NCBI GenBank assembly: GCA_013153515.1
Contig: JAADEI010000081.1
Span: forward strand, 1-54,091
From: Chlorobiota bacterium
GTDB lineage: Bacteria; Bacteroidota; Bacteroidia; JAADEI01
Length of the DNA: 54,091 nucleotides
Reading direction: 5' to 3'
The stretch's first letter is position 1; every line of letters begins with the position of its first letter. A model generated the notes under the pieces. That model saw only the letters and a program-made list of their open reading frames with translations. It was not told the origin of the DNA and searched no databases. This document shows, piece by piece, positions 22,198 to 41,676 of the stretch. Both the position numbers and the translations under genes were made by a program.

Positions 22198-25100
22198 ATG
22201 AATAAAGCAGATAAAGCACCTTTGATTAGTGTATATAAGAAACTATGTCCTGTTTGTGGGGAAGAGATAGACAACGATAGGCTCTGGTTGGGGTTGCCTT
22301 GTCGGAAATGTGTTCCAGACCCTGCTCCACTTAATGTCAGGCTCAATAGAGGCTTGTTTAAGAGGTTTTATAAAACTCAACAACTAACCACCGAATTCTC
22401 CAAATTTTTTAAGAAAGCCACGGGGTTTGATATCGCCCGTTTGCAAGTGTTATGGACAAAAAGATTTTTCTTGGGGGAATCCTTCGCTATAATGTCTCCT
22501 CCGGGACTCGGCAAGACAACGTGGGGATTGACCCTCAGCCTATTTATCGAAGGGAAAGTATTAATTCTTGTGCCGACCAGATTGCTTGGCGAACAAGTAT
22601 TAAACAGGCTTTCTGAATATGCATCAAAAACAAATTCACGAAAAAGAATTTTGTTTTACAAAAGTTCCCAAAAGATCAAGAAGCAATATGAAAATGGCGA
22701 ATATGATATATTGATTGGCACAACCAGATTCTTTTATTTGCATTTGTCCGAACTGAAAAAAGTGCCTTTCTCTTTCATCTTCATTGACGATGTTGACTCT
22801 TTCCTGAAGCAGCCACGCAGCGTGGAAAGACTAATGAATTTTCTCAACATCCCTTATAGCCTTGTTCAGAAAGCAATGGAACCGAACTTGCCACCGGAAG
22901 ATTTAAATCGGCTCTATGAACAAGCCCAACGATTCATAAACAAACAACTAATCATATCTTCTGCCACCTTAAAGCCTCGTCCCGCTCAAATAAGGCTTTT
23001 CAGACGATTGTTGGGGTTTGATATTCAAAAAAGCATAACGACCCTGAGGCAAATAACCGATGCAAAGAAGGGGCTTAATTCTTTGGAAGAGATAATGAAA
23101 AGGGCAGTTGAGATAATAAAAGAAGTTGGTAGTGGGGGACTGGTCTTCCTCTCTCCAATGCTTGGAAGCAAACATCTGGACTCTGTATTGGAACACCTAA
23201 GGAATAATGGCATAAACGCCATTTCTTATACGGAACATAGCACAGCGGAATTGATTAAGATAATGCAGTCTGGGGAATTTGATGTTGCCGTGGGGATCGC
23301 CCATGCTATGAATCCACTTGTCAGGGGAATAGACCTTCCCTCCGTGTTGAAATATGCTATATTTCTTGAACCTCCTGTTTTTATGTTTCCATTGAAGCAG
23401 GAACCTGTTCCATCCAGACTGTATGTCCTGCTAATAAACATTGTAAATGCCCTTCCGGAAGACTTGCGAACAACTGCTTTCTCTTGGATTCAATACCTGA
23501 GGGACAAACGCTATATTTCCGCCAAGGCGATAGAGGGCAATCCGACGTTAAAATCTAAACTGGAACAGATCGCTTCCACCCTCCAACAATGGCTCAATGA
23601 CCCGGGAATTCAAAGAAAATTAAATGAGTCGGACGATGTTTTCATAAAATTCATTGACGGACAGTGGTATATCATCATTGGCGACGCAACAAGTTATATC
23701 CAAGCGTCTGGACGAACCAGTCGCCTCACTCCTCACGGCTTGACGGAAGGGCTATCAATAGTCCTTTATTCAGAGCCCAAAGCAATGAGAAGCCTTGAAA
23801 AACGATTAAACATATTTTTTCCTTCTGCCCAAATTCAATTTAAAAATCTGGATGAACTGAACTTACAAGAAATTAAAAAAAGGCTTATTGAATCCCGACA
23901 GGAAACCGTTGAACGCAATAGACCATCTTTCTCCTCAACCCTTGTGATTGTTGAATCTCCCACCAAGGCAAAGACCCTTGCTTCATTCATAGGGACTCCA
24001 CAGATGCGTAAGACAGATGGCGTCATTGCTTATGAAGTGCCGGGGGCAGACAGAATGTGGATATTCACCGCTTCACTCGGACACATAACAGACCTCATCA
24101 CTGATGAAGGGTATTGGGGCGTTAGGATTGGGGGCGATGAAGGGTTCCTGCCTGTCTATAATACTATCAAGCATTGCGACACGGAAAAAGGACGGATTCA
24201 ATTCACTGATGATGACCCGCCCTCTCCCTGCTCTAAAAGACCCATATCAGACAAAAAAGAAATTATTGATGGACTGAGAAAATTAGCCTTTCAAGTTGAT
24301 GAAGTTATTATTGCAACCGACCCAGATACCGAAGGCGAAAAAATCGGATTTGATAACTGGCATGCTATAAGACCTTACCAACGTAATGTTTTGAGAAGTG
24401 AGTTTCATGAGATAACGCCCGCAGGCTTCAAGAAAGCAATTCAACAAGCCAGAATAGTTAATTTCAATTGGGTTAAGGCACAGATTGCCCGTCGGATAGC
24501 AGACAGATGGGTCGGATTCTATTTCTCACAATATCTATGGAAAAGATTTAGGAACAAGTTTTTGTCAGCGGGAAGGGTTCAAACTCCTGTCTTAAAATGG
24601 GTCATTGATCGGACGTTAAAGGCACGCACCAAAGTGCCCGTAGTAACCTTTAAAGTTCAAAATGTTCAATTTGAACTACCAGCCCAAAACAGGCAGGACG
24701 CCAATCAGAAAATTAATTTGCTCCGGAAAGCAAACATAACTCTAAGCGACGAAAAAACTACGCAAAAAAATCCCGCTCCCCCTTTCACCACAGACAAAAT
24801 TCTGCAGGAAGCCAACACCCTACTGAGAATAGATGTCAACACCACTATGAAACTACTACAAGAACTCTTTGAAAATGGCTTGATAACATATCACAGAACA
24901 GATAGTACACACGTGTCAGACACGGGGATTTATGCCGTTGCAAAGCCTTTCATCGTGGAAACAGCAGGCGAAGAATACTTTTATCCCAGGCACTGGGGAC
25001 AGGAAGGAACCCATGAAGCGATCAGACCAACCAGACCACTCACACCAGATGACTTAACAATACAAATTTCATCGGGGATATACACCTTCTCCGACAATCA

Positions 25101-25719
25101 AAAAGCCCTTCATCTGTATGATTTAATTTTCTTTTGGTTCATGGCTTCACAAGCCTCTCCAGCGAAAGTGAAGCAAGCCACCTTATCCATAATGTCGCCT
25201 GATGGCAACCTGCTAATCCAAAAACTCGTGATAACCCAGATTGAGTTTGATGGATACTTAAAATTCGCTCACAAATTTGTACGACTTGAACAAATTGACC
25301 CTTCACAACCTCTAAAACTCTCTGACATAAAAATAACCCACAAGCCTTTGGAACCTCCCTTCACACAAGGCGAACTAATCAAAACAATGAAAGAAAGGAA
25401 ACTGGGACGTCCCTCCACATACGCCAAGATAGTGGAAACCCTTCTTAACAGGAAATATGTCAGCGAACACCGTGGACGCCTATACGCCACTAAACTGGGA
25501 ATGCAAGTCTATAAATGTTTGCTTCAGGACTGTCCAATTCAACCCGAAAAACGACGCCTCCTTTCAGAAGACTTCACACGGGAATTGGAAGAACTAATGG
25601 ATAGGATAAGCGAAGGGGAAGAAAGACTAAAAAACGTGCTTAATAGATACTTCACTATATTGGAATTGAGACCTGTGCATAAACCCTTTCAACACAGTCA
25701 TAAACCAGACTCCTATTAA
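22198..25719 (+). CDS. rgy: Reverse gyrase
   Basis: N-terminal CPVC-x17-CRKC Zn finger. SF2 helicase motifs PPGLGKTT, DDVD, SAT, YIQASGRTSR. Type IA topoisomerase motifs IVESPTKA, ATDPDTEGEKI, SAGRVQTP, LITYHRTDS (catalytic Tyr), GRPSTYA. 1173 aa. Confidence 0.97.
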   Translation: MNKADKAPLISVYKKLCPVCGEEIDNDRLWLGLPCRKCVPDPAPLNVRLNRGLFKRFYKTQQLTTEFSKFFKKATGFDIARLQVLWTKRFFLGESFAIMSPPGLGKTTWGLTLSLFIEGKVLILVPTRLLGEQVLNRLSEYASKTNSRKRILFYKSSQKIKKQYENGEYDILIGTTRFFYLHLSELKKVPFSFIFIDDVDSFLKQPRSVERLMNFLNIPYSLVQKAMEPNLPPEDLNRLYEQAQRFINKQLIISSATLKPRPAQIRLFRRLLGFDIQKSITTLRQITDAKKGLNSLEEIMKRAVEIIKEVGSGGLVFLSPMLGSKHLDSVLEHLRNNGINAISYTEHSTAELIKIMQSGEFDVAVGIAHAMNPLVRGIDLPSVLKYAIFLEPPVFMFPLKQEPVPSRLYVLLINIVNALPEDLRTTAFSWIQYLRDKRYISAKAIEGNPTLKSKLEQIASTLQQWLNDPGIQRKLNESDDVFIKFIDGQWYIIIGDATSYIQASGRTSRLTPHGLTEGLSIVLYSEPKAMRSLEKRLNIFFPSAQIQFKNLDELNLQEIKKRLIESRQETVERNRPSFSSTLVIVESPTKAKTLASFIGTPQMRKTDGVIAYEVPGADRMWIFTASLGHITDLITDEGYWGVRIGGDEGFLPVYNTIKHCDTEKGRIQFTDDDPPSPCSKRPISDKKEIIDGLRKLAFQVDEVIIATDPDTEGEKIGFDNWHAIRPYQRNVLRSEFHEITPAGFKKAIQQARIVNFNWVKAQIARRIADRWVGFYFSQYLWKRFRNKFLSAGRVQTPVLKWVIDRTLKARTKVPVVTFKVQNVQFELPAQNRQDANQKINLLRKANITLSDEKTTQKNPAPPFTTDKILQEANTLLRIDVNTTMKLLQELFENGLITYHRTDSTHVSDTGIYAVAKPFIVETAGEEYFYPRHWGQEGTHEAIRPTRPLTPDDLTIQISSGIYTFSDNQKALHLYDLIFFWFMASQASPAKVKQATLSIMSPDGNLLIQKLVITQIEFDGYLKFAHKFVRLEQIDPSQPLKLSDIKITHKPLEPPFTQGELIKTMKERKLGRPSTYAKIVETLLNRKYVSEHRGRLYATKLGMQVYKCLLQDCPIQPEKRRLLSEDFTRELEELMDRISEGEERLKNVLNRYFTILELRPVHKPFQHSHKPDSY

Positions 25720-25799: not shown

Positions 25800-27137
25800 T
25801 TAATCGGGTTTATTGTGTATGTATGGAATCGTGTTCTTTCTGGGATTGGGCACCTCCCTCTCGTCCTCTGCATCACCACCAACACCAAAAAATAATCCCG
25901 GAATGCTTCTCTGCTGCCTTAAATAGGAAGGTTCCTCTTTTCTGAGTTTCCTCCTGTCTTGTGGGCTAACGCTTTCCTGCCCCCTTGATCTTTGCTTTTC
26001 AACTTGATTTTCAGGCTCATATATTGGCTCTTTCTTAGGAATATAGTGTGCATCTGCATAACCCGAACTAATTTCCACATCCTTTGGCTCAACTAAACTA
26101 GTTGGTTTCTGATTCCACAATACAGGTTTCTCTTCTTCCTCCTCTATCTCCCGCTTATCAACAACTTCAATAATCAATAGCATAGCACTTTTCTCAGGCA
26201 AGTGAGATGTTGAACCCAAGGCAACAAGGAACTCAGCATCGGGCGACTCCTTCTCTAATCTCTTCTTCAATGTGTGAATGAGACTTCCAGTAATGTCAAC
26301 GGAAGGATGCCAGAGGAACGACACGAACAAAGCAGACGCATTCTTCAAAGTCAAAATATGTTTCAAATATGGATGGGAACTGATTTGCTCAAACATCTCA
26401 TCAAGGTCAGGCTTGTCTATTTTCGTTTGAATGCTTATTCCCACATGTGCCTCCTTACCCTGTCCAAACAACATTCCCAACTCTCCCGGCTTAATGGAAA
26501 AATATAATCCCGGATTGCATGAATAAATAATACCCTGAATAATGTTTTTAATAAAATTATTCCTGTCTTTTAAAATATCTTCAAATCGCCTATCTGCAAC
26601 CGCTATATTGTCATTATCCACAACTATTACCGCACTGACGTGTTTCTTAATCTCTTCAATGGCTTCATCCGCTATCTGTCTCACCCGTTTGCCTGCAGGA
26701 CTAAAAGGATAGAGTAATATGGCAATTGACGACACATTTGTCTTCCCCTTTAACAATTCCTCTGCAATGACGGGCAATGCACCACTGCCAGTGCCCTCCC
26801 CAACTCCAGCGATAAAAAAGACCATTTCAGTATCATCACCCACTAACTTCTTCAAGTCTTCTATGGATTCCTTAGCGGCAGCCCTCCCTTTCTCAGGGTC
26901 TCTCATACAGCCCCTCCCCTGAGTTACACTCTCTCCCAAAAGAACTTTATGTATGTTCGCCACCCCATCCAATGCGTCAGCGTCCGTGTCGCAAGAAATA
27001 GCCATCACGGATTGAGGCATGTCTTTGAAAATGTAGTTAACCACTTGGATTCCAGCAGTTCCAACCCCTATCAATTTAATGCGTCCCTTTCCCCAAGACG
27101 CCTTCTCCCTAACAACAGGAACTATTTCGGTAGTCAT
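25800..27137 (-). CDS. ftsZ: Cell division protein FtsZ, highly divergent
   Basis: Last gene of dcw after ftsA. IKLIGVG, DTD, PEKGRAAAKES, MVFFIAGVGEGTGSGALPVIAE, DND; Bacteroidota-like tail (EPSYLRQ ... YIHNKPD). Catalytic loops altered. Confidence 0.85.
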   Translation of the reverse strand: MTTEIVPVVREKASWGKGRIKLIGVGTAGIQVVNYIFKDMPQSVMAISCDTDADALDGVANIHKVLLGESVTQGRGCMRDPEKGRAAAKESIEDLKKLVGDDTEMVFFIAGVGEGTGSGALPVIAEELLKGKTNVSSIAILLYPFSPAGKRVRQIADEAIEEIKKHVSAVIVVDNDNIAVADRRFEDILKDRNNFIKNIIQGIIYSCNPGLYFSIKPGELGMLFGQGKEAHVGISIQTKIDKPDLDEMFEQISSHPYLKHILTLKNASALFVSFLWHPSVDITGSLIHTLKKRLEKESPDAEFLVALGSTSHLPEKSAMLLIIEVVDKREIEEEEEKPVLWNQKPTSLVEPKDVEISSGYADAHYIPKKEPIYEPENQVEKQRSRGQESVSPQDRRKLRKEEPSYLRQQRSIPGLFFGVGGDAEDEREVPNPRKNTIPYIHNKPD

Positions 27138-27139
27138 GG

Positions 27140-28636
27140 CTAAAATGTTTCGTCGTTATCTGTTTCTCCTTCACTACTTAAAAACCCCTTAAACCATTGC
27201 TTTATTGATTGAATCAGTTTTGACTCTCCTAAATCGTCTTTAGTTGTTTTGCTCTGTCCTGAATAAACAATATCAACAACCCTCTCCTGAATATAGTGGA
27301 CTATCATTCCCACGGCGGTTGAATGGATCAACAAGTTAGAATTGTCCCCTTTAGGAATTTGAACAGTTGATTGTTTCACATCTATCCACATATCAGGACC
27401 TTTCTTTCTCACTTGCACATTATTTCTGAACACCCCTGATATTTTCGTCTGTCCGAAACACTGTGCAGCCAAAACCTCAATGCCCTTCAAATTACTACCT
27501 CCGCCAGTTAGAATAACATTAGAAATCTCCCCGCTATCATATAGACCCGTGTTGGTCTTGTAATTCTGCATATTAACAATTCTTGCCAGACTTCTCAATG
27601 CCTCCGGAATGTCTTCTGAAAACAATTCTGCATATCGGGCGGCTATAATACCTATAAGTTGATTTACCTTCACCGAAACCGGATGACTCTTGTCATCAAA
27701 GAAAATATCTATTCTGTCATCTTTCCTCACGTTTTTAGAAATCACCAATGAACCAACTTTCTCCTTCAATCTACGGGCTTCTTGCAGGGTAATGTTAAGC
27801 AGTTGTTTTATATCGTGATCCACGGTATTTCCCGCAATATCTATACTATTAACTTCAATGATGCTATGATTTTTCATATACAACAAATCTGTTGTTCCTC
27901 CCCCTATGTCTATCACCAAAACCCCTATTTCTTGGTCTGCGGGCGTGGCGGTAGCCATCGTCGACGCCAATGGTTGCAAGATGACCTCATCAGGACTCAA
28001 TCCCGCCCATTCAATAGCCATTTTGAGAGTGTTAACATTCGTTTGGTCTATGGAAACAAGGGTAAATTTCCCGATCAGGGCATCCCCAACAGCCCCAATG
28101 ATTTCATTAACTATCGGCTTTAGTGGAACATCCTTATTACCCTGCTTAACATAAAACTCTGTTGGAATAACATGGATCACATTACTACTATTAGTAGCAC
28201 TATTCTTCGCTCTGGCAAACAGCCTCCTCACATCTTCCCTAGTTATTATATGTCCTGTGTCTTCAAAACTTATTGACTGAGAAATATCCTCCTTCCTCAA
28301 CGCAACACCGGCAACACTAAACAACACACGTTGGAAATTCGTATTCCCTTCAATCCCAACCTGAGTCTTGGCGAGATCCATCGCCCTTTTTATAGAACTG
28401 CTCACCTTGTTTATGTTATAAATACTTCCTTCTCTCATACCGAAAGAGGGCGTTACACCCATGCCATCAACTATCAGCCTGAGGTTGCGAGGCGTAATCA
28501 TTCCTTCAGCAAGATATTGATCCACATTGAAGGATGCCCGAGCAATGATAACTGAGATTTTGGTTGTCCCTACGTCTATAGCAACAATCGGCTTCCTTTC
28601 CAATTCCGTCGCCAGTTCAAGCAATTCCTGTTTCAT
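27140..28636 (-). CDS. ftsA: Cell division protein FtsA (divergent, with insertions)
   Basis: IDVGTTK, GSIYNINKV, IHVIPTEF, LQPLAS, IDIGGGTTD, LTGGGSNL, STAVGM, amphipathic IKQWFKGFL. Confidence 0.93.
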   Translation of the reverse strand: MKQELLELATELERKPIVAIDVGTTKISVIIARASFNVDQYLAEGMITPRNLRLIVDGMGVTPSFGMREGSIYNINKVSSSIKRAMDLAKTQVGIEGNTNFQRVLFSVAGVALRKEDISQSISFEDTGHIITREDVRRLFARAKNSATNSSNVIHVIPTEFYVKQGNKDVPLKPIVNEIIGAVGDALIGKFTLVSIDQTNVNTLKMAIEWAGLSPDEVILQPLASTMATATPADQEIGVLVIDIGGGTTDLLYMKNHSIIEVNSIDIAGNTVDHDIKQLLNITLQEARRLKEKVGSLVISKNVRKDDRIDIFFDDKSHPVSVKVNQLIGIIAARYAELFSEDIPEALRSLARIVNMQNYKTNTGLYDSGEISNVILTGGGSNLKGIEVLAAQCFGQTKISGVFRNNVQVRKKGPDMWIDVKQSTVQIPKGDNSNLLIHSTAVGMIVHYIQERVVDIVYSGQSKTTKDDLGESKLIQSIKQWFKGFLSSEGETDNDETF

Positions 28637-28644: not shown

Positions 28645-29370
28645 CTATTTACCTGCCACAAGTTGGTTTTCGTATCTCAAATCAATCGTTTTGTAAGTCT
28701 GCCACAATCCATGTTTTTTGATGAATTTGAAGAATTTGCGTAATTTATTTAGTTTTCCATCCAAGCGGTCATCAACCTCCCCGATTATTATTTTTTGCCT
28801 GTCAACCCTGCTTATTAAGACCCATCCGTGCGAGGAAGAGTAAGTTATGTGCCCGATTATTGATGTTAGAAACTTGTTTTTATTTATATGTTTAATTAAA
28901 GTTTTTAAGTCGTTTATTTTCTCACTGATTGTATAGGCATCTGTGTATAAGAGAACAACTGGGACATATACAGGCTTTGAAACCTCTGTAATAAGGAAAA
29001 TGGTTCCGTCCTCCGCCATGTAATAGCTCTCTCCGCCGAAAGTGATGATTCTGGCTATTGGCACGTGTTCCTCAATCCTTACAACAAGGGTTGAATCGTG
29101 GGATATGAACAAGTGGGCTTCTCTGATTGGCTCCAATTCTTCCAGTTTGCTTTCTATCTCTTCCAAACGTTGTGGCTTGATAGAATCAGCGTTTCCAAGT
29201 ATCTGGAAAATAACTGTTGAATCCACAAACCGCAAATCCCCCTCCACTCTCAGTTTGTTAAAAGTTGGTTTCCACGAGAAGGCACTGGCAAGCAAAACAA
29301 TAAGTGTCGCAACTAAGAAAACCAAATATGCCCAATCCTTCACCATTTTCTTAAACTCCTGCACTCTCAT
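28645..29370 (-). CDS. ftsQ: Cell division protein FtsQ/DivIB
   Basis: One TM, POTRA-like IESKLEELEPIREAHL, VRIEEHVPIARI, IDLRYENQLV; position between murC/B and ftsA. Confidence 0.85.
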   Translation of the reverse strand: MRVQEFKKMVKDWAYLVFLVATLIVLLASAFSWKPTFNKLRVEGDLRFVDSTVIFQILGNADSIKPQRLEEIESKLEELEPIREAHLFISHDSTLVVRIEEHVPIARIITFGGESYYMAEDGTIFLITEVSKPVYVPVVLLYTDAYTISEKINDLKTLIKHINKNKFLTSIIGHITYSSSHGWVLISRVDRQKIIIGEVDDRLDGKLNKLRKFFKFIKKHGLWQTYKTIDLRYENQLVAGK

Positions 29371-31684
29371 CGGGAACAAATTTTCCTATTTTCTGAACCT
29401 CCATCTGTAACAAAACACCACGTCTGTTAAACACTTCATTGCGAACATGCTCAATTAACCGAAGCATATCAAGTGCAGTAGCATTATTAGCGTTAATCAG
29501 GAAATTAGCGTGTTTAGGGCTAACCATTACCCCTCCCACAGAAAACCCCTTTAAGCCCAATTCATCAATCAATTTGCCGGCAGGCAATTCAATAGACGGG
29601 TTTTTAAATATGCATCCTGCATTAGGCTTATTAAGCGGTTGCGACGTGTTACGCTTCTTCAACAAGTTCCTTCTCCTTTCCAATGCCTCCTCTATGTCAT
29701 CAATTGGTTTCAATTTCAGGACAGCCTCCAGAATGATTGAGTCATAAAGGTCTGTATAGCGATAGGCATATCTAACCTGTCCCTTTCTTAGTCGTTGGAT
29801 TCTACCATCCCTGAACACCTCAACCTCCTCTATGAAATCAAATATCTCAGCCCCATAAGCCCCGGCATTCATCAGGACAGCACCCCCCACCGTCCCGGGA
29901 ATCCCAGCCAATGGTTCCAATCCCCCCAGCCCGGCTTTAATCATCTTCAAGACGAAGGCGGGCAGGTCAACGCCGGCACCCACCACAACACGCCCATCAC
30001 CCAAAATCTCATAGTAATTCAATGCTTTGCCTACATTCATAACTATGGCATCCATACCATAGTCCCCCACCAATAAGTTGGAACCACGTCCCAGAACGAA
30101 ATATGGCAGGTCTTCCTTGGCAATAAATTCAAGCAAGTTCAATAATTCTTGTTTGTCCTGTGGATTGACGAAGAACAGTGCTTCCCCACCAATTCGCAGA
30201 GTTGTATGTTTTGATAATGGCTCCCTTTCCTTGACATTTTGGGTTATTTCATAGAGTTTTTGTCGTGTGGTCTCTTGTTTCAATTTCCTAACGCCCTCTT
30301 TCATAAACCACCTGTCCAACAGCACTTCCTTAAAGCGGTCTGCCAGTTTGTTTATGTCTCCGGCACCGAGAATAACCAGCACCCTTGGTCTCCTCCGTCG
30401 CACAAACTCAACAAGGGAATCAAAGGGAATGTAGAACTTATCTGGATGTTCCACATGCTTGAGAATCAAATAAGGGTCAACGCCGGCAATGGGCTTTTCC
30501 CGTGCAGGATAGATGTCTGTAACGACCACGGCATCCGCCTCACTAAGCGACTTCCCGAATTCCTCAGCGAAGGCTTGCGTCCGACTATATAAATGCGGAT
30601 GGAATATCACAGTTATTTTTTCGTCTGGGTATAGGGTTCTGACCGTTTTAAGGGCTTCCTTCACCTCAGTGGGATGATGGGCATAGTCATCAATGAATGC
30701 CCTGAAATAATCAGCATAATAAATCTGGAACCTTCTTTCAATGCCCTGAAATTCCACTAACTCATTGCCCGATAAGGTCAATCCCTGAGCATAAAGGGTT
30801 GTCACAGCACCCGTTATGTTTGAAGCATTATGTTTTCCTGGCAAAGAAATGGGTTGTTTAAACTCAATGTTTCCATAAGGCAAATCAATAAGAAAGGAAA
30901 ATTCAGGTAATTCAAGTGGTTTTCTGACCATACGGAACGAATGCCCCCGCACATCAGCGTAGTCCTCAATGCCATACGTAATCACTTCAATATCGTCTCT
31001 GTGAATGGAAAGCAAGTTTCTGACTGTGGCATTGATTATTAATTTCCCTCCCGGCTTTATATTCCCCACAAACTGGTTAAAAGCATCTATGAAATCCTCA
31101 AAAGTCGGATAAATATCCGTGTGATCCCATTCTATGTGAGTGATTACTGCCACGGTCGGTTTCAGCAACAGGAAAGACCGGTCATATTCATCTGCTTCCA
31201 CAACAAAAGTCCGGTTGTCTCCTGCAACATAGTTGGAACCATAGTTCAATGGGATTGCTCCAAGGAAAGCCGTCGGTCGCCTCCCCGCTTTATCCATCAA
31301 ATAGGTTATCAACGTGGAAGTCGTTGATTTTCCGTGTGTTCCGGCGACGGCAATCAGGTCTCCTTGGTTAACTATTTGTGCCAGCAGTTCAGCCCGTTTG
31401 ATTAAGGGAATCCCACGGTCTATCACTCCTTTGAGCAATGGGTCTTCAAGGGACAGGGCGGGCGTCCACACAACAAGCCCGGGCATCTCCCGGTCAATCA
31501 GTTCAAGAGCCTCCCGTTCGGAATGCACAATAGTCATTCCTTCTCTGGAAAGCGTTTCGGTCAGTTGGGTTCTTGCCCTGTCATAGCCATAAATAGAGTG
31601 TCCCTGTGAGTTCAGGAAGCGAGCCAAGGCACTCATACCTATCCCGCCAATCCCAGCAAAAAATATCTTTTCAGGCAAGTTCAT
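29351..31684 (-). CDS. murC/murB: MurC-MurB fusion (UDP-MurNAc--L-Ala ligase + UDP-N-acetylenolpyruvoylglucosamine reductase)
   Basis: MurC: GIGGIGMSALA, GTHGKSTT, EADEYDRSFL, DDYAHHPTE. MurB: HTTLRIGG, LGRGSNLL, GIPGTVGGAVLMNAGAYG, QPLNKPNAGCIFKNP, SPKHANFLIN. Single ORF (track start 31708; likely start 31684). Confidence 0.92.
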   Translation of the reverse strand: MNLPEKIFFAGIGGIGMSALARFLNSQGHSIYGYDRARTQLTETLSREGMTIVHSEREALELIDREMPGLVVWTPALSLEDPLLKGVIDRGIPLIKRAELLAQIVNQGDLIAVAGTHGKSTTSTLITYLMDKAGRRPTAFLGAIPLNYGSNYVAGDNRTFVVEADEYDRSFLLLKPTVAVITHIEWDHTDIYPTFEDFIDAFNQFVGNIKPGGKLIINATVRNLLSIHRDDIEVITYGIEDYADVRGHSFRMVRKPLELPEFSFLIDLPYGNIEFKQPISLPGKHNASNITGAVTTLYAQGLTLSGNELVEFQGIERRFQIYYADYFRAFIDDYAHHPTEVKEALKTVRTLYPDEKITVIFHPHLYSRTQAFAEEFGKSLSEADAVVVTDIYPAREKPIAGVDPYLILKHVEHPDKFYIPFDSLVEFVRRRRPRVLVILGAGDINKLADRFKEVLLDRWFMKEGVRKLKQETTRQKLYEITQNVKEREPLSKHTTLRIGGEALFFVNPQDKQELLNLLEFIAKEDLPYFVLGRGSNLLVGDYGMDAIVMNVGKALNYYEILGDGRVVVGAGVDLPAFVLKMIKAGLGGLEPLAGIPGTVGGAVLMNAGAYGAEIFDFIEEVEVFRDGRIQRLRKGQVRYAYRYTDLYDSIILEAVLKLKPIDDIEEALERRRNLLKKRNTSQPLNKPNAGCIFKNPSIELPAGKLIDELGLKGFSVGGVMVSPKHANFLINANNATALDMLRLIEHVRNEVFNRRGVLLQMEVQKIGKFVPDESAGV

Positions 31685-32798
31685 CACTATATTTTTTAGC
31701 CTGTTCAACTATTATTTCCGCAATCCTTTCAGTTGCCTGCGGATTACCAAACTGCTTTATCCTCTCTGCAAGGGCTTGCCTCCTGCTTTCATCACCCAAC
31801 AATTCAAGCACTGTCGGAATGAGCTTGTCCTTCTCATGTTCCTCAACCATCACTATGGCACCCTGTTGAGCGAGAGACTCTGCATTCTTCCGTTGATGGT
31901 CATCGGCAACATTGGGCGAAGGAACTATAACCGCCGGCTTCCCAGCAACAGCCAATTCAGACAGGGCACTGGCACCAGCCCTTGACACAACCACATCAGC
32001 AACCCGATAGGCATAATCCATTCTGTCTATGAATTGTCCCTGCCAGACCCTTCCCCTCCATTCCTCAGGATTCCATTTCATCTGTGGAACTTCCTGCTTG
32101 CCGGTCTGCCAGATTATCTGATAGCCTTTCTGCAAAATCTTCTCCCCTTCCTCAGCAATAATTTGATTGAAAAATGCCGAACCAAGACTACCCCCCGTTA
32201 CCAACACAGTGGGTCTGTCTTCCAAGCCGAAGTATTCCAATGCCTCAGACCGTGGAATCTTATCATAATTCAAAATGCTTTGTCTAACCGGATTGCCCGT
32301 GTAAACATGATTATACTTCTCCAATTCTTTCGCCGGCAACACAAGGGTTATGACCGATGCCTTCGGCGCCAACAGCCTGACGGCAAGTCCCGGAACAGCA
32401 TTCTGTTCGTGCAACACAACGGGAATGTTATTTGCAAAGCGTCCCCACACAACAGGAACGCTCACATAAGCCCCAAGAGAGAAGATAACATCCGGCTTGA
32501 AATCAGAAATAATGTTATAAGCCTGAATTATGCTAACAAACATTTTTATGGGAAGCAAGATGTTATCCCACCATTTGGTTCGTTGCAACCCACTTATCCA
32601 AACCGTTTTAATTGGAAAGCCATATTTAGGCACAATTTCCGTTTCCATCCTGTCCTTCGCACCGACAAACAGCACCTCAGCACCATAGTTATCACGCAGA
32701 TGTTGAGCCACCGCTATTGCAGGGAATATATGTCCACCTGTTCCGCCCGCAGAAACCAACACTCTAAGCCGTCTGTCCATCCCCTTCGCTTTGTTCAA
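31671..32798 (-). CDS. murG: Lipid II GlcNAc transferase MurG
   Basis: GGTGGHIFPA, HEQNAVPG, GNPVR, GGSLG, SRAGASALSE, ADDHQRKNA. Confidence 0.97.
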   Translation of the reverse strand: MNKAKGMDRRLRVLVSAGGTGGHIFPAIAVAQHLRDNYGAEVLFVGAKDRMETEIVPKYGFPIKTVWISGLQRTKWWDNILLPIKMFVSIIQAYNIISDFKPDVIFSLGAYVSVPVVWGRFANNIPVVLHEQNAVPGLAVRLLAPKASVITLVLPAKELEKYNHVYTGNPVRQSILNYDKIPRSEALEYFGLEDRPTVLVTGGSLGSAFFNQIIAEEGEKILQKGYQIIWQTGKQEVPQMKWNPEEWRGRVWQGQFIDRMDYAYRVADVVVSRAGASALSELAVAGKPAVIVPSPNVADDHQRKNAESLAQQGAIVMVEEHEKDKLIPTVLELLGDESRRQALAERIKQFGNPQATERIAEIIVEQAKKYSDELA

Positions 32799-33945
32799 TT
32801 ACCACCGCACTGGAACCCAGCAACATGCCCAGCATAAAAAATGTGAACAGGATTGATGTTCCTCCCATGCTAATCAATGGCAGTGGCAAACCTGTTGCGG
32901 GAAACAGCCCGCTCACCACCCCAATGTGCAACAATGCCTGAAAAGTGATGCTAAGCCCAATGCCCAGAATCAATAGCCCTATGAACCGATTGTTCGCCTT
33001 TGTAAACAATTTGATGCTCCGCCACATTATAGTGAAATACAGAATCAATATGAAAATCCCCACTATCAAGCCATATTCCTCAATTATGATGGCATAAACG
33101 TAGTCTGAATATGGATGTGGCAGGAAATATCTCTGAACACTTTTGCCTATTCCTCTGCCAAACAGTCCACCGTTTGCAATGGCTATTTGTGCTTGCAGAA
33201 CCTGATAGGACGGCTCCCCTTTAATGTAGCGTTCTATCCTGTTTTTCCAAGTCTCAGCCCGTCCAACCTTCAAAATCATCACTGCCCCAATGAAAAGAGC
33301 AAGAACTAAAGTTACAACCGCCCCAATCCGGATTATGTATTTAAAAGGCAAGAGAGAAACGAACAACATAATGAATGTGATTGTTGCCAGCATCAGAGCA
33401 GTTGACAGGTCTGCATAGGCTATAAGCAATATGACCACCGAAGATGGAATAATAACCTTAATCATAAGTTCCCTAAGGGAAAAGGCGTCTTCCGGTTTCC
33501 GTCCATCCTGAAGGGCTTTCTTAATGCGACCCAAGAGATGAGACAATTGAGCAGCGAGATAGATGAGCAGAGCCACTTGAGCGAAGGCGGAAGTCTGGAA
33601 GGTCAACCCAGTGAATGGAATGACGAGCCAGCGACGTGCCTGATTAATGCTTGCACCATGGACAAGCGTTATCACAAGCAAAACAATAGCCAACAAAAGG
33701 GCTATGTTAGCCGCCTTCCTGAACACATGCGGATTTATCCTGTGGACAACATAGGCAACTCCAAAACCCATCACTAAAAAAATGATGTGTTTGAACATAT
33801 AGGAAGACACTTCCCCTCCCTTATATCTGATTCCCAGCACGCCTACCGCACTGGCAACAACAAGCATTGAGAACAGAGTGAGTGTAATGATGGCGAACCA
33901 TAGAGCCCTGTCGCCCCTCAACCTTCTGAACAATCCTGTCATCAT
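32764..33945 (-). CDS. ftsW: Peptidoglycan glycosyltransferase FtsW
   Basis: ARRWL, QTSAFAQ, GGLFGRG, LPHPYSDYVYAII, PATGLPLPLISMGGTS. Confidence 0.95.
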   Translation of the reverse strand: MMTGLFRRLRGDRALWFAIITLTLFSMLVVASAVGVLGIRYKGGEVSSYMFKHIIFLVMGFGVAYVVHRINPHVFRKAANIALLLAIVLLVITLVHGASINQARRWLVIPFTGLTFQTSAFAQVALLIYLAAQLSHLLGRIKKALQDGRKPEDAFSLRELMIKVIIPSSVVILLIAYADLSTALMLATITFIMLFVSLLPFKYIIRIGAVVTLVLALFIGAVMILKVGRAETWKNRIERYIKGEPSYQVLQAQIAIANGGLFGRGIGKSVQRYFLPHPYSDYVYAIIIEEYGLIVGIFILILYFTIMWRSIKLFTKANNRFIGLLILGIGLSITFQALLHIGVVSGLFPATGLPLPLISMGGTSILFTFFMLGMLLGSSAVVIEQSEGDGQTA

Positions 33946-35264
33946 TCCCCTTCTTGTTCAACAGTTTCTTTCAATTCCATTACTGCCTTCCGGAACGCCT
34001 CCCCACGCTCTGCATAATTGTTGAACAAGTCAAAACTGGCACAAGCGGGCGAGAGCAAAACCGTTGTTCCTTCACTGGACAGGTCAAATGCCCTCCTAAC
34101 GGCTCCCTCCATGCTTGTAACATGATAGACAGGCACAATGCCTTCAAACGCTCTCTTAATGGGCGTGCAATCCTTAGCCAGACACACGATAGCCTTGACT
34201 TTTTCCTCAACAAGCGGAATCAATGGCGAGTAGTCATTTCCCTTATCCACTCCCCCCGCTATCCACACAATTGGTTTGGGAACTGTTTCAAGGGCATACC
34301 AAGCCGAGTTGACATTCGTCGCTTTGGAATCATTGATGAAGACAACGCCTTTTATTTCAGCCACTGGTTCCAGCCTGTGTGGCGGTCTCTTGAATGTTCG
34401 CATCGCCCCTTTGATCTGGTCTTCCGGGATGTTAGCGATTCGGGCAGTGATGGCAGCAGCCATTGTGGAAGCCGGATGGGCTATGTTCTCAGCCTGTTGG
34501 TCTATCTCCATCATCCTTCCGGTTATTGGGTCTCTGTATCTCATGGGTCTCTTATTTGGAAAGAATGGATGTTTTTTAGCGTTAATCGTAAGTTTTTTCA
34601 TCCACTTGATAATTATTTGGTCATTGGCATTAAAGACGAAATGGTCATCAATTGTTTGGTTCTTGGTTATGTTGAACTTTGACTGGATGTAGTCTTCCAT
34701 TGAAGGATGCCAATCCAAATGGTCTTTGGCTATGTTGAGCAATATGGCAATGTGTGGTCTGAATCGCTTGACATATCTCAATTGGAAACTACTTACTTCA
34801 ACGACGTGCCATTGAGCATCCCGCTCATACAACTGCCTACAGAAACTCTTGCCTATGTTCCCGGACAAAGCGACGTCATAACCACTTTGCTTAAAGATGT
34901 GATAGATGAGCGATGAGGTAGTTGTCTTCCCATCGGTTCCCGTAACGGCAATTATCTTGCCTCCTGCGAAGCGGAAACCGAATTCTATATCCGAGATTAC
35001 TGGTATATCCCGATTTTCCAATTCTTTTATGATACTGGCAGACGGCGGAATTCCCGGACTCTTAACAACTTCCTTTGTTTGGAAGACCTTTTCTGTGTGT
35101 CCCCCTTCCTCATATTCAATTTCTAACTGGTCAAACAATTTCTTTGTTTCGTTGTCTATAGTTCCTTGCTCAGAAACAAATACACTATACCTGTTTTTGG
35201 CGGCTAACAGGGCGGTTCCAACGCCGCTCTCCCCTGAACCCAATATGACAACGTCGTATCTCAT
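33942..35264 (-). CDS. murD: UDP-MurNAc-L-Ala--D-Glu ligase
   Basis: VKSPGIP, TGTDGKTTT, EVSSFQL, DHLDWH, HRLE, NDSKATN, LSPACASFDLF. Confidence 0.97.
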   Translation of the reverse strand: MRYDVVILGSGESGVGTALLAAKNRYSVFVSEQGTIDNETKKLFDQLEIEYEEGGHTEKVFQTKEVVKSPGIPPSASIIKELENRDIPVISDIEFGFRFAGGKIIAVTGTDGKTTTSSLIYHIFKQSGYDVALSGNIGKSFCRQLYERDAQWHVVEVSSFQLRYVKRFRPHIAILLNIAKDHLDWHPSMEDYIQSKFNITKNQTIDDHFVFNANDQIIIKWMKKLTINAKKHPFFPNKRPMRYRDPITGRMMEIDQQAENIAHPASTMAAAITARIANIPEDQIKGAMRTFKRPPHRLEPVAEIKGVVFINDSKATNVNSAWYALETVPKPIVWIAGGVDKGNDYSPLIPLVEEKVKAIVCLAKDCTPIKRAFEGIVPVYHVTSMEGAVRRAFDLSSEGTTVLLSPACASFDLFNNYAERGEAFRKAVMELKETVEQEGE

Positions 35265-36493
35265 CGCAATTTAAGTGTTATAAGGGTTAGTGCCGCCAGA
35301 AAAAGGCTAATTATCCAAAATCTTACAACTATTTTGTTTTCATGCCAGCCTTTCTTCTGGAAGTGATGATGGATTGGTGCCATCAGGAAGATTCTTCTGC
35401 CCTGTCCGTATCTACGCTTTGTCCATTTGAAATATGCCACTTGGATGATCACAGACAATGCCTCTATTAAGAAAACTCCGCATAGCAACGGCAACAATAA
35501 TTCCTTTCGCAAGATCACAGCAAGAGTTCCAATGACCGACCCAAGCATCAGGCTACCAGTGTCGCCCATAAAAACAGAAGCAGGATAGGCATTATACCAC
35601 AGGAATCCGATTGCGGAACCCACTATGGCAGCAGTGAAAATGGTTACTTCGGCAATGTCTGGGATATACATAATGTTCAGGTAGTCAGCCAGCAGGATAT
35701 GTCCCGAGACGTAAGCAAACACGGCAAGGGTTGACAGGACTATTGCCGAGACCCCCGCCGCCAAGCCATCCAACCCATCAGTGAGATTAGCAGCATTTGA
35801 AACAGCAGTGTTTATAAAGATTACCACTATTGTAAACACAATCCACGTCAGGGAAACTGGAATTCCGATAGCCTTCGCTATCCACTCATACCTGAATTCA
35901 TTGTTTTTCACAAAGGGTATGGTAGTAGAGAATTCCTTGGCATCGTAATATCTGTATGTATCACTTTCATGCGTTGAATTTTGTTGATAGACCTCCAAAG
36001 GCTCATCAATGAAATATCTAACTCTGACGTCTGGATGGAATGCGAGAGTTAAGCCTATGAGCAAGCCCAGTCCGACCTGTGCCATAATCTTAAACTTTCC
36101 ACGCAAGCCCCCTTTGTCCCTCAACTTCACTTTGATGTAATCATCAACAAACCCCCAGAATCCCATCCATAACGTCGCTACTACAAGCAGCCACACATAA
36201 ACATTGTCCCATTTAGCGAGCAACAGGGTAGGCACTACCGTCCCCGCTATTATCATCAAGCCTCCCATTGTTGGTGTCTGTGCTTTCCGTTGTTGTTCAG
36301 GCAGGTCTAAGTCCCTTTGTGGGTCGGTTATTTGCCATCGCTTCAGCCAAGCAATGATATATTTCCCCAACCACATAGTAATTATAAGGGCTATGATAAT
36401 GGACATAAGAGCCCTGAAGGATATGAACTGGAAGACTCCAGCCCCCGGAACATCAAACTCCCTGTCCAAATATGTGAATATGTAATAAAGCAT
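35261..36493 (-). CDS. mraY: Phospho-MurNAc-pentapeptide transferase
   Basis: TPTMGG, GFVDDY, SNAANLTDGLDGL, FMGDTGSL, MAPIHHHF. Confidence 0.98.
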   Translation of the reverse strand: MLYYIFTYLDREFDVPGAGVFQFISFRALMSIIIALIITMWLGKYIIAWLKRWQITDPQRDLDLPEQQRKAQTPTMGGLMIIAGTVVPTLLLAKWDNVYVWLLVVATLWMGFWGFVDDYIKVKLRDKGGLRGKFKIMAQVGLGLLIGLTLAFHPDVRVRYFIDEPLEVYQQNSTHESDTYRYYDAKEFSTTIPFVKNNEFRYEWIAKAIGIPVSLTWIVFTIVVIFINTAVSNAANLTDGLDGLAAGVSAIVLSTLAVFAYVSGHILLADYLNIMYIPDIAEVTIFTAAIVGSAIGFLWYNAYPASVFMGDTGSLMLGSVIGTLAVILRKELLLPLLCGVFLIEALSVIIQVAYFKWTKRRYGQGRRIFLMAPIHHHFQKKGWHENKIVVRFWIISLFLAALTLITLKLR

Positions 36494-37972
36494 TTATGAA
36501 TGTTTTGCCGGTTTGCGTTCTTTTAGTGCTTTAACCACTTCCTCAAAGTCCGAAAAGGGAATCCGTTTCCCCTTTATCTCTTGGTATTCCTCATGCCCTT
36601 TACCTGCAATAACTATTATGTCTCCCTGATGAGCCATTGCCACAGCGGTTCTAATCGCTTCCCTACGGTCGGGAATGGACAGTGTTTTTCTGCGATAGAT
36701 AGCATTCAAGTCGGTGAGCATATCCCGGATAATGTCCTGTGGGTCTTCACTGCGTGGGTTGTCAGAAGTGATTATTGCTATGTCTGCGAGTTGAGCCCCT
36801 ATCCTGCCCAACAGCGGTCTTTTCTCTTTGTCCCTGTCTCCGCCCGCTCCAAACACAAGAATTATTTTCTGCTCAGGAATTCTAACCTGCTTAATTGTTT
36901 CAAGCAGTTTTTTCAATGCGTCTGGTGTGTGTGCATAGTCAATGACTGCGGTGATTCCAGCCTCTTTGATAATGTTCATTCTGCCTTTTGGTGCAGGAAC
37001 CTTTGAGAGAGCCTGCAAGATGACTTCATCTTCAAAATCTGTGCTTAACTTCAATCCTCCATAAGCAGCAAGGAAATTATAGACGTTAAATATCCCCGGA
37101 AGCAAGATGTGGATGCTTCTGCCTTCAATATCAATATGCGTCCCGAAAATGTCCATTTCCAGTATTTTACATGTGAAGTCGGCAGCCCTCCTGATTCCAT
37201 AAGTGTAAACTTTCGCCTTGGTGGACGCAATCATTTGCTTGTGATAGCGGTCATCAACATTCACAAGTGCCCATGCATCCTCAGAAAGCATATCAAACAG
37301 TTTCTTTTTGGCATTGATATAATTCTGCATTGTTTGGTGATAGTCCAGATGGTCGTGGCTTATGTTCGTGAAGATTGCCCCTGAGAACCTTATTGCCGAA
37401 ACCCTATCTTGATCCAATGCATGACTGCTTACTTCCATAAAAACATGGGACACTCCGGCATCTGCCATCCTGCGAAGAACACTGAAAAGTGTGATAGGGT
37501 CTGGTGTGGTGTGCGTGGCTTTCTCAAACTCATCAGCCCATTCATATCCAATGGTGCCTATGCGTCCTGTCCGAAGACCCAATGCCTTAGAACCCTCATA
37601 AAGCAGATGGACAACTGTTGTTTTACCATTTGTTCCCGTTACGCCAACGATTGTTAATTCTTCGTCCGGCTTGTCATAGTAGTTTTTTGCTATGAATGAG
37701 AGAGCCCGCCTTGAATTATCAACCTGAATCCAGAACACTTGCTCAGGAACCTGACTTTGTGGTTCCCGTTCCGACACTATTACCCTTGCCCCTCTCTGGA
37801 TAGCGTCCGGGATAAAATCATGTCCGTCAACAGATGTGCCTTTGATGGCTATGAACATAGAGTTTTCCGTGCACTGTCTGGAATCCATACAGATGTGGCT
37901 AATTGTGGCAACAGGCTTTCCATATTTACCCACGACCCTGACTCCTTCTAATAGTTGATTAATTTCTTTCAT
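36494..37972 (-). CDS. murE: UDP-MurNAc-tripeptide synthetase (meso-DAP-type DNPR motif)
   Basis: GTNGKTT, HTTPD, MEVSSHAL, DHLDYH, DYAHTPDAL, TSDNPRSE, AGKGHE. Confidence 0.97.
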   Translation of the reverse strand: MKEINQLLEGVRVVGKYGKPVATISHICMDSRQCTENSMFIAIKGTSVDGHDFIPDAIQRGARVIVSEREPQSQVPEQVFWIQVDNSRRALSFIAKNYYDKPDEELTIVGVTGTNGKTTVVHLLYEGSKALGLRTGRIGTIGYEWADEFEKATHTTPDPITLFSVLRRMADAGVSHVFMEVSSHALDQDRVSAIRFSGAIFTNISHDHLDYHQTMQNYINAKKKLFDMLSEDAWALVNVDDRYHKQMIASTKAKVYTYGIRRAADFTCKILEMDIFGTHIDIEGRSIHILLPGIFNVYNFLAAYGGLKLSTDFEDEVILQALSKVPAPKGRMNIIKEAGITAVIDYAHTPDALKKLLETIKQVRIPEQKIILVFGAGGDRDKEKRPLLGRIGAQLADIAIITSDNPRSEDPQDIIRDMLTDLNAIYRRKTLSIPDRREAIRTAVAMAHQGDIIVIAGKGHEEYQEIKGKRIPFSDFEEVVKALKERKPAKHS

Positions 37973-40062: not shown

Positions 40063-40067
40063 CGTGC

Positions 40068-40349
40068 TTACTCAATTACCAATGGTGGTTTTCTCTGCGG
40101 TTTAATCCCTGTTTGTTGAACTCTATGGGCGATTGTTGATTCTTTGCTTTGTTGCATCCATCTGGACAATGTTGTTAGGTATTCCCATCTTTTCTCTTGC
40201 AACTGGATTCTTTTCTTTTGCAGAAGGGCAAGTTTCTGAACTGTTTCATGCACGACCCAAATCCTGATAAGCAAAAGGATTCCGAGGAATAGTAGGAATG
40301 GTGCATAAGCGAAACCAAGCCTTTCCAACCTTCTGACAAGGACTCTCAT
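40068..40349 (-). CDS. ftsL: FtsL-like cell division protein
   Basis: 93 aa; TM followed by coiled coil; between rsmH and ftsI. Confidence 0.75.
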   Translation of the reverse strand: MRVLVRRLERLGFAYAPFLLFLGILLLIRIWVVHETVQKLALLQKKRIQLQEKRWEYLTTLSRWMQQSKESTIAHRVQQTGIKPQRKPPLVIE

Positions 40350-41206: not shown

Positions 41207-41651
41207 TTGATTTGGTCATTACCTCTTCGGCGAGTTTAGCCAGTTCATCAGCGGGAATGTTGAGTGCTTGTTCGTATCTCTCTGGCGACCAAACCTCTAT
41301 TTGCCCGAAGTGTGCGAATAAAACGGCTTCGTTTGTTATTCCAGCATAGTCAAGCAAATGTTTGGGAATAAGGATTCTCTGCATTTTGTCTGGTTGGACG
41401 ACTGTTGCTCCACGAAAGAAATTCCTAATGAACATGCGATGTTTCTGCGAGAAGGGATTAGTGTTTTCTTTGATTTGTTGGACGAGCCTGTTCCATTCGT
41501 CATAGGGATATATAGTCAAGCACTGTTCAAAGCCTCTGTTAATAACGAAGCGAGGGTCTGCACCCTCTGGCAGTTGGCGAAGCAGAGCCACAGGAAGGGT
41601 AAGACGACCCTTGGAATCCAACTTAACCCTATATTCTCCAATCAAGTTCAC
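41190..41651 (-). CDS. mraZ: Division/cell wall cluster transcriptional repressor MraZ
   Basis: LDSKGRLTLP, RGFEQCLTIYP, DKMQRILIP, IEVWS. Likely GTG start at 41651, downstream of the promoter. Confidence 0.95.
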   Translation of the reverse strand: MNLIGEYRVKLDSKGRLTLPVALLRQLPEGADPRFVINRGFEQCLTIYPYDEWNRLVQQIKENTNPFSQKHRMFIRNFFRGATVVQPDKMQRILIPKHLLDYAGITNEAVLFAHFGQIEVWSPERYEQALNIPADELAKLAEEVMTKSNGDGA

Positions 41652-41676
41652 GGTATAATATTTTCCTGTGGCAATA

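Follow-up and report, generated by a model that had tools for sequence, protein, structure and literature searches.

The contig JAADEI010000081.1 of a Chlorobiota bacterium (assembly GCA_013153515.1), of which we analysed a stretch of 54,091 nucleotides (hereafter, the window), carries on its reverse strand a complete dcw cluster that runs from mraZ to ftsQ, ftsA and ftsZ. The final, 3′ gene of the cluster, which begins 2 bases past the end of ftsA, encodes a strongly derived FtsZ orthologue and is the subject of this report (Table 1). Its place directly after ftsA is kept in related loci (L005, L007, L010/L090 and L089), in agreement with an earlier note on this DNA that had taken the gene for the true dcw orthologue. 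Few bacterial proteins are as conserved as FtsZ, and in the current model its treadmilling, driven by GTP hydrolysis, distributes and paces septal peptidoglycan synthesis.

We aligned the window FtsZ with that of Escherichia coli and with 129 canonical FtsZs, comprising 79 database matches and the FtsZs of syntenic loci from Bacteroidota and other phyla. Substitutions are written in E. coli numbering (the E. coli sequence, which matches that in the PDB alignments, served only to number positions); in the window protein D45 corresponds to D52, Q47 to D54, G106 to E114, D209 to Lys216 and D212 to Glu219. The alignment reproduced all six motif changes that the earlier note had listed, in T1, T2, T3, the tubulin signature, T5 and the T7 synergy loop, and the positions it had quoted were exact, with 26781–26801 and 26478–26498 of the reverse strand translating to GEGTGSG and SIKPGEL, respectively. 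Substitutions G20T, N43D, Q47D, G71M, G106E, T132L, F137P, E138A, R142V, F182L, N207S, D209K, F210P and D212E each occur in at most one of the 129 canonical sequences. Threonine at position 20 of T1 is found in one of them, and the T1 loop is invariant in the clade that the window forms with its close relatives. Neither N43D nor Q47D/E in T2 is found in any, the relatives having glutamate at the Q47 position, and G71M in T3 is likewise absent from all 129; the arginine that follows in T3 (R79) is private to the window, its relatives having glycine (GRGCMGDP). G106 of the signature is invariant in canonical FtsZs (129/129) and is replaced by glutamate in the window (E114), by lysine in its clade relatives and by arginine in a more distant relative, P0085; the pattern [SAG]-G-G-T-G-[SA]-G is accordingly unmatched by G-E-G-T-G-S-G. 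Of the T5 residues replaced, E138 is present in 129/129 and R142 in 124/129 canonical sequences. F182, at the top of helix H7, is present in 124/129 and is leucine or tryptophan in the clade; D187N in the same segment is not diagnostic of nucleotide preference, asparagine occurring there in 12/129. Lysine at 209 and glutamate at 212 of the T7 loop have no canonical counterpart (0/129), leaving the pattern N-x-D-x-x-D unmatched by S-I-K-P-G-E, and the register of this loop is the same in MAFFT and HMMER alignments and in an AlphaFold2 (AF2) model, in which helix H8 begins at P217, matching F210.

The statement that nearly every motif had eroded holds in part. Canonical FtsZs show at least 90% conservation at 44 positions; the window alters 18 of these (canonical median 1, 95th percentile 9), but 26 survive, including G17, G19 and G22 of T1, T44 and D45 of T2, G67 and P74 of T3, P134, F135 and G139 of T5, and G103, G105, G107, T108, G109 and G111 of T4. 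The word 'remodelled' is no less apt than 'decayed' or 'eroded', given that this phosphate-binding glycine skeleton remains and that the clade conserves the derived loops. In established FtsZ structures the retained positions hold the phosphates through backbone amides, and the losses fall mainly on side chains that carry out chemistry or make longitudinal contacts.

The replaced side chains can be placed on the Staphylococcus aureus enzyme, the numbering of which is that of E. coli plus one. There, N44 and D46 hold Mg2+-coordinating waters and, with Q48, organise these waters and the K+ site; N208 coordinates K+ in T7 and forms hydrogen bonds with D46 and Q48 of the next subunit down; the catalytic water is kept in place by D210 and D213 together with the G72 backbone; and R143 is arginine-finger-like (PMC8936486). 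D46A, R143Q, N208L, D210N and D213N each abolish assembly in vitro, Q48A and R143K lower the GTPase rate about six-fold, and changes at the E. coli equivalents of the six key residues D46, Q48, R143, N208, D210 and D213 are inactivating in vivo (PMC8936486). At these S. aureus positions the window has D for N44, D for Q48 (E in relatives), M for G72, V for R143, S for N208, K for D210 and E for D213, so that five of the six individually inactivating positions (Q47, R142, N207, D209 and D212 in E. coli) are replaced and only D45 (D52) is kept. Laboratory single mutants at D209, D212, R142 and N207 lose GTPase activity and assembly (PMC8936486), whereas the window protein changes five such positions together, with candidate compensation, and has been kept by natural selection. 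With substitutions at N43, Q47, G71, R142, N207, D209 and D212, the sequence itself shows that the composite active site of other FtsZs, with its interface of two cations, cannot form here. The changes are not random, with T7 losing two acidic residues and gaining a lysine, the facing T2/H2 segment gaining two acidic residues and the cis arginine being lost; the window clade and P0085 both combine the basic gain on T7 with the acidic gain at T2/H2, a combination that FtsZs of Lentisphaeraceae and Kiritimatiellia have reached by convergence.

Table 1. Features of the ftsZ locus in the window (positions on the forward strand; residue changes in E. coli numbering)
Feature	Position	Strand	Remarks
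ftsZ	25800-27137	-	strongly derived FtsZ orthologue, 445 amino acids (aa), ATG start, intact open reading frame (ORF)
N-terminal peptide, residues 1-18	27084-27137	-	MTTEIVPVV.E.ASWGKG; disordered in AF2 model
T1 loop	27045-27068	-	GVGTAGIQ (GGGGGN to GTAGIQ; G20T, G21A, G23I, N24Q)
T2/H2	26976-26993	-	CDTDAD (NTD to DTD; N43D, Q47D; D45 kept)
T3 loop	26895-26918	-	GRGCMRDP (canonical GLGAGANP; A70C, G71M, A72R)
T4, tubulin signature	26781-26801	-	GEGTGSG (canonical GGGTGTG; G106E)
T5	26679-26708	-	PFSPAGKRVR (PFNFEGKKR to PFSPAGKRV; F137P, E138A, R142V)
Top of H7	26547-26582	-	EDILKDRNNFIK (F182L, D187N)
T7 synergy loop	26478-26498	-	SIKPGEL (canonical NVDFADV; N207S, D209K, F210P, D212E)
C-terminal (GTPase-activating) domain, residues 225-330	26148-26465	-	modelled confidently, superposes on FtsZ structures
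Variable linker, residues 331-399	25941-26147	-	disordered, pLDDT <50
C-terminal peptide (CTP)	25911-25937	-	EEPSYLRQQ, predicted FtsA-binding; modelled as short helix
Post-CTP extension	25803-25910	-	38 residues, ending TIPYIHNKPD
ftsA	27140-28636	-	498 aa (long), co-diverged partner
ftsQ	28645-29379	-	244 aa, strongly diverged
Rest of dcw cluster	29351-41699	-	normal conservation: murC-murB fusion, murG, ftsW, murD, mraY, murE, ftsI, ftsL-like, rsmH, mraZ
murC-murB	29351-31708	-	putative fusion
ftsI	37969-40062	-	
ftsL-like ORF	40068-40349	-	93 aa
Reverse gyrase	22198-25719	+	zf_Rg, DEAD, Toprim and Topoisom_bac domains; convergent to ftsZ

Profile and predicted fold both place the protein in the FtsZ family. 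Pfam PF00091 (Tubulin/FtsZ) matches it with E=8e-30 (105 bits against a cutoff of 33) and phmmer matches PDB FtsZ entries with E=1e-27; the Pfam FtsZ_C model gave no match to it. On TIGR00065, the FtsZ equivalog model, it scores 133.9 bits, below the curated cutoff of 295.2, while its clade relatives score 135–136 bits, P0085 56 and syntenic Bacteroidota FtsZs 373–381. The AF2 model, built from a 45-sequence alignment, has a predicted local distance difference test (pLDDT) score above 90 over residues 20–330, and the top 50 Foldseek matches are all FtsZ (target-normalised template-modelling scores of 0.81–0.89 over about 313 columns, covering both domains). Ahead of this core, 12 of the 18 residues of the N-terminal peptide are invariant across the five clade proteins and S-W-G-x-G is also found in P0085, a clade-specific gain of constraint that may mark a new interaction motif. 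Behind it, P403, Y405 and R407 of the CTP are invariant in the clade and in P0085, and the motif matches the ENEPAYLRRG of Bacteroidota. The protein thus shares with canonical FtsZ its homology, predicted two-domain fold, disordered linker, CTP and post-ftsA position in the dcw cluster, and with Bacteroidota FtsZ a post-CTP tail of similar length; it differs in its TIGR00065 score, in G106E, in a T7 loop reading SxKxxE for NxDxxD, in the replacement of R142, E138, Q47, N43, G71 and F182, and in the conserved N-terminal peptide that it has gained.

Close relatives are few. A search of 5.8 billion proteins returned only four (P0002–P0005, 64–73% identity), the next matches being about 41% identical over 42% of the query, and a further, more remote member, P0085, came from an exhaustive profile search that covered 1.84 billion cluster representatives; a profile that included P0085 found no further members. 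Two of the relatives are GTDB species representatives (Dive100_bin10.107 and S141_62), and a literature search for these metagenome-assembled genomes (MAGs), or for an earlier description of the FtsZ of this lineage, found none. The derived motifs occur in five protein clusters, including that of the window, and at a sixth locus with the same synteny, and are fixed in the clade as GVGTAGIQ, CD[TS]D, GRG[CS]MGDP, G[KE]GTGSG, PFSP[AS]G[KR]R and SIKP[GA]EL. The arrangement with a reverse gyrase gene converging on ftsZ recurs in L001, L006, L007 and L090, and the whole order of dcw cluster, ftsQ, ftsA, ftsZ and convergent reverse gyrase in L005, L006, L007 and L010/L090. The reverse gyrase gene points to a thermophilic host, a lifestyle rare in Bacteroidota. 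In their similarity to Bacteroidia, the MraY, MurE and MurD proteins encoded in the window equal those of a control Bacteroidota family (for MraY, 53.9% versus 53.8% identity), and for this reason we place the host in a deep Bacteroidota lineage.

Within the clade, identity to the window FtsZ is 77–87% in the GTPase domain and 72–86% in the C-terminal domain, and falls to 14–26% in the linker. The idea that ftsZ evolves much faster than its neighbours (69% identity against 90–97% for the Mur enzymes) was discarded, as the difference lies mostly in the linker; in the nearer relatives the FtsZ core reaches 83–87% identity. Compared with L005, ftsZ has a dN/dS of about 0.07, similar to that of the neighbouring Mur enzymes and approximate, because dS in this Nei–Gojobori (NG86) estimate is saturated. 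T-loop positions are invariant in the clade in 73% of cases and the remaining core positions in 64% (p=0.13); the corresponding figures for canonical Bacteroidota groups are 69% and 52%, at a lower mean pairwise identity (0.74, versus 0.83 in the clade). Because invariance of the T-loops in the clade at least matches that of the rest of the core, as it does in canonical Bacteroidota, the remodelled loops remain under constraint. The earlier note had held that the gene is no pseudogene, a judgement that the intact ORF, conserved synteny, purifying selection, predicted FtsZ fold and retained CTP sustain, and we rejected neutral decay in the window clade on the intact ORFs, core identities of 72–87%, conserved loops and low dN/dS. 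E114 (lysine in relatives, arginine in P0085) and R79 (glycine in relatives) are found in the window alone and form a paired charge change flanking the γ-phosphate site; one may speculate that these side chains do not touch the nucleotide, or that the pocket is partly self-filled.

P0085 (435 aa, GCA_027014915.1) occupies the same ftsQ–ftsA–ftsZ context and is 30% identical to the window FtsZ; the FtsA beside it (494 aa) is 32% identical to the window FtsA. It shares the T1 motif GVGTAG, CDSD, the S-W-G-x-G N-terminal peptide, the CTP and the tail, and gives a confident FtsZ-fold model (pLDDT 81), with T3 deleted and GRTTTPI in place of GGGTGSG. Its T7 loop also has a lysine, at the D212 position, in company with N43D and Q47D. 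P0085 keeps E138, R142, F182 and N207, all of which are lost in the window clade, and the two branches therefore lost different parts of the site independently after a shared first step, as would be expected had selection on GTP chemistry been relaxed in the ancestor they share. This is the main reason why we prefer a low or absent GTPase activity over a fully rewired enzyme. Of the earlier suggestion of a GTPase-poor FtsZ, the direction is favoured and no more: the canonical catalytic and interface residues are largely gone, and P0085 has lost T3 and T4 outright. In the wider group GTP turnover looks dispensable, P0085 having neither T3 nor the signature and keeping fold, CTP and tail.

Taken together, we favour, with a probability of about 0.6, the reading that this gene encodes the vertically inherited dcw division FtsZ of a small, deep, thermophilic Bacteroidota lineage of deep-sea hydrothermal deposits, the catalytic site of which would have been dismantled or rewired so that hydrolysis is slow or absent. 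The nucleotide pocket and the T7 synergy loop would have been remodelled on the lineage stem, with FtsA and FtsQ changing alongside, and the remodelled state would since have been held by purifying selection. Nucleotide binding is plausible in the window clade, because the glycine-rich T1/T4 backbone that grips the phosphates is largely retained, and GTP turnover is probably low or absent. At the subunit interface, Lys216 and Glu219 of T7 may meet Asp50 and Asp/Glu54 of T2/H2 in a salt-bridged longitudinal contact that would replace the bridge of Mg2+, K+ and water; as an alternative to this charge pairing, the T7 lysine may serve as a trans finger. Slow or absent hydrolysis would yield a stable, weakly dynamic or non-treadmilling polymer, which could still form an FtsA-tethered septal scaffold for a normal FtsW/FtsI/FtsQ peptidoglycan machine.

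Several points weigh against this reading. The window clade strictly conserves the derived loops and retains T108, D45 and the glycines of T1 and T4; the same data fit an active, rewired GTPase in which Lys216 acts as trans finger in place of Arg142 and Glu219 as base. The MAGs are fragmentary and leave room for a canonical second FtsZ elsewhere. K114E and G79R are confined to the window, so that its protein may behave unlike those of its relatives. The estimate of purifying selection carries the saturation noted above, and the salt bridges are proposed from sequence together with the interface published for S. aureus.

A rewired but fully competent GTPase, which assembles with GTP, hydrolyses it and treadmills, is the rival that survives best, though we think it unlikely. 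Its site would combine a tubulin-like T1 with Asp50, Asp54 and Glu219, the last acting as base; Lys216 would stand in for Arg142 and K+, either as a trans finger or as a tethered cation. Such an enzyme would account for derived loops that are invariant or nearly so in the clade and for retention of the glycine skeleton, T108 and D45, and GTAG/DTD with a basic T7 recurs in Lentisphaeraceae and Kiritimatiellia FtsZs whose T3, T4 and T5 are normal. α-Tubulin uses Glu254, at the D212 position, as base and the tubulin T1 reads GQ[AC]G[NV]Q; the window protein resembles tubulin in its T1 (GTAGIQ beside GQAGVQ and GQCGNQ), in the acidic first position of T2 and in the glutamate at the position of α-tubulin E254, the one likeness to which the earlier note had drawn attention; its T7 lysine recalls the non-catalytic K254 of β-tubulin. 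In the tubulin dimer, GTP at the N-site stays bound and is not hydrolysed. The resemblance does not extend to sequence-level affinity, all PDB and Foldseek matches being FtsZ or CetZ, and tubulin keeps an intact GGGTGSG. Competence is also hard to reconcile with methionine at G71, where the backbone holds the catalytic water, with lysine in place of the swinging catalytic aspartate D209, with the loss of E138, a ribose contact, with the swap between lysine and glutamate at position 114 beside the phosphates within the clade, and with the complete loss of T3 and T4 in P0085. Were GTPase activity normal, the protein would represent a second catalytic solution within FtsZ, converging on tubulin and on the FtsZs of Lentisphaeraceae and Kiritimatiellia.

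The partners of FtsZ bear on a second rival. Expressed as bits per aa against Bacteroidia, FtsZ of the window scores 0.17, versus 0.60–0.62 for control Bacteroidota; FtsA scores 0.24 versus 0.64–0.86 and FtsQ 0.21 versus 0.30–0.34, and MraY, FtsW and the Mur enzymes stay close to normal. Between close relatives the Mur enzymes are 90–97% identical, FtsA only 53–62% and FtsQ 60–72%. FtsA lies just above the TIGR01174 cutoff (191 bits against 176), and its segments DVGTTK, DIGGGTTD and LTGGGS, which we take to be the actin-fold nucleotide-binding motifs of FtsA, align identically or near-identically to an FtsA structure. FtsQ of the window had no Pfam match, and its relatives matched FtsQ_DivIB_C weakly. 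The cytoskeletal core of the divisome, FtsZ and FtsA with FtsQ alongside, thus co-diverged while the wall-synthesis part did not, and the locus offers a system for studying divisome co-evolution.

This co-divergence, expected of interacting partners, argues against a redundant relic, in which a second, canonical FtsZ or tubulin paralogue or another system would divide the cell and the present copy would have been freed for another or reduced role. The nearest natural precedent for such a relic is the degenerate FtsZ of Nitrosopumilus: N. maritimus Nmar_1262 is an FtsZ-like protein without GTP motif and T7 that does not polymerise in yeast, Cdv being the likely division machinery (PMC3684127). 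The two are alike in being natural FtsZ homologues in which these conserved motifs are not canonical, and the further decay in P0085 would fit loss of the ancestral function. Nmar_1262, however, is archaeal and belongs to a Cdv-dividing cell, whereas the window gene belongs to a bacterial dcw operon that also encodes FtsA, FtsQ, FtsW and FtsI, and its product keeps the CTP; its host is not known to have another division system. We regard the relic as improbable, given also that the gene stays beside ftsA at the end of the dcw cluster in every relative, that the predicted FtsA-binding CTP and the tail are kept, that the gene is under purifying selection, that FtsW, FtsI and FtsQ are all present, and that the window and about 154 kb of lineage sequence examined contain one FtsZ/tubulin homologue only.

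Descent of the gene was judged from several comparisons. At the same syntenic position, Bacteroidia have canonical FtsZs that score 320–425 bits on a canonical hidden Markov model (HMM) built here. Many Bacteroidia FtsZ tails consist of ENEPAYLRRG, about 40 residues and NSFLHDNVD, and that of the window of EEPSYLRQQ, 38 residues and TIPYIHNKPD; the endings IPYIHNKPD and NSFLHDNVD resemble each other in an aromatic-x-x-[DN]-x-x-D pattern, and post-CTP length is 37–44 in the clade, with medians of 40 in Bacteroidota and 7 in other phyla. The Bacteroidota-like tail claimed in the earlier note therefore stands as architecture but not by profile: a tail HMM, the score of which is dominated by the universal CTP, did not place the clade above non-Bacteroidota controls. 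Group-specific HMMs of the core gave no Bacteroidota signal, the branch being long and the comparison set biased. A neighbour-joining (NJ) tree united the clade and P0085 with 100% bootstrap on a very long branch, leaving the FtsZ core outside Bacteroidota and near FtsZs of the Planctomycetes–Verrucomicrobia–Chlamydiae (PVC) group, a placement with 28% bootstrap. Pairwise BLAST of FtsZ, FtsA and FtsQ scored best to Bacteroidota and lowest to the PVC type. We conclude that the gene was inherited vertically, with a burst of change on the lineage stem, and that horizontal transfer is unlikely.

The PVC FtsZs in question (L092 from Lentisphaeraceae, L093 and L094 from Kiritimatiellia; ORFs near 5.9–7.1 kb and 9.6–11.1 kb) were found through the pattern LIGVGTAG. 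They share with the window T1 GVGTAG (which P0085 also has), T2 DTD, an aliphatic residue (L/M) for F182 and a T7 loop (R-L-D-x-E-R) that has gained basic residues and has arginine in place of D212; the one scored on TIGR00065, L094, is far below the cutoff (113 bits). Unlike the window, they have a normal T3, GGGTGGG, PFxFEG and R142, keep D209 and end a few residues after the CTP. The likeness appears convergent, and L092–L094 look like a second, convergent type of non-canonical FtsZ active site. Replacement of ftsZ, with or without ftsA and ftsQ, by a copy from a PVC-like lineage that already carried GTAG/DTD would explain the T1 LIGVGTAG and T2 CDTDA common to Lentisphaeraceae and Kiritimatiellia FtsZ and the position of the clade beside PVC FtsZs in the NJ tree. 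We consider it very improbable: that grouping has the low bootstrap given above and joins the two longest branches, in pairwise scores Bacteroidota rank first and the PVC type last (94 versus 42 bits and 140 versus 56 bits), and the clade has the long Bacteroidota-like tail, whereas the CTP lies a few residues from the C terminus in three PVC-type sequences. That frameshifts, chimeric assembly, mis-binning or sequencing error made the odd motifs has nothing in its favour except that all sequences come from MAGs or metagenomes, and we dismiss it, the ORF being intact, the same motifs recurring across samples and pipelines in independent NCBI, ENA and Logan assemblies, and the flanking genes being collinear with those of relatives and 80–97% identical.

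An ordinary dcw cluster with an FtsZ short of five of six key residues offers a natural test of the need for GTP turnover, and the co-adapted set of T7 Lys/Glu, T2/H2 Asp and the lost Arg142 and K+ site could show how the composite site of the tubulin family is rewired. More tentatively, and with the balance somewhat against it, we propose that a walled lineage with a complete divisome (FtsA, FtsQ, FtsL-like, FtsW and FtsI) divides by a static, salt-bridge-locked, FtsA-tethered FtsZ that does not turn over GTP. If true, it would be a natural experiment in which FtsZ treadmilling is dispensable for septal wall synthesis, and would trace a route from a cytomotive to a passive filament with P0085, devoid of T3 and tubulin signature, as its end point.

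Elsewhere in the window, the murC–murB fusion candidate (785 aa) combines Mur ligase N, M and C domains with FAD_binding_4 and MurB_C, and the fusion is also kept in L005 (778 aa) and L010. Synonymous divergence is uneven along the cluster for the same genome pair (window versus L005 and L009): dS is 0.5–0.96 for the mur genes, ftsW and mraY, and 1.6–2.6 for ftsQ, ftsA, ftsZ and reverse gyrase, which could reflect a recombination boundary at murC-B/ftsQ or an artefact of NG86 saturation. Just upstream of mraZ, an ORF at 41743–42783 (346 aa) has weak matches to a SPOR domain (E=8e-4) and to HU-CCDC81 and may encode a putative septal peptidoglycan-binding protein. Between this SPOR-like gene and a 1,027-aa tetratricopeptide-repeat (TPR) protein (44388–47471) sits a 546-aa ORF (42758–44398) that, like the ORFs at 7895–9112 (405 aa), 11237–12493 (418 aa) and 48339–48866 (175 aa), matched no Pfam family at E<=0.05. 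Over the whole 54-kb window (1–54091), scans for tRNA, tmRNA and Rfam families gave nothing at gathering score.

The searches also turned up other unusual FtsZ arrangements. Three proteins from the search of cluster representatives (P0086, P0087 and P0088; 731–840 aa) carry two full FtsZ modules in tandem in one chain, and in P0088 both modules have atypical T7 loops. FtsZ is duplicated in tandem in Mariniphaga (L034 and L039), a canonical genus of Bacteroidota: two adjacent genes of about 400 bits each lie at about 18.3–19.6 and 19.7–21.1 kb, and of these the upstream copy has an acidic tail end (MFDDEDQSMDEE) and no CTP, the downstream one a CTP and tail of the Bacteroidota kind.

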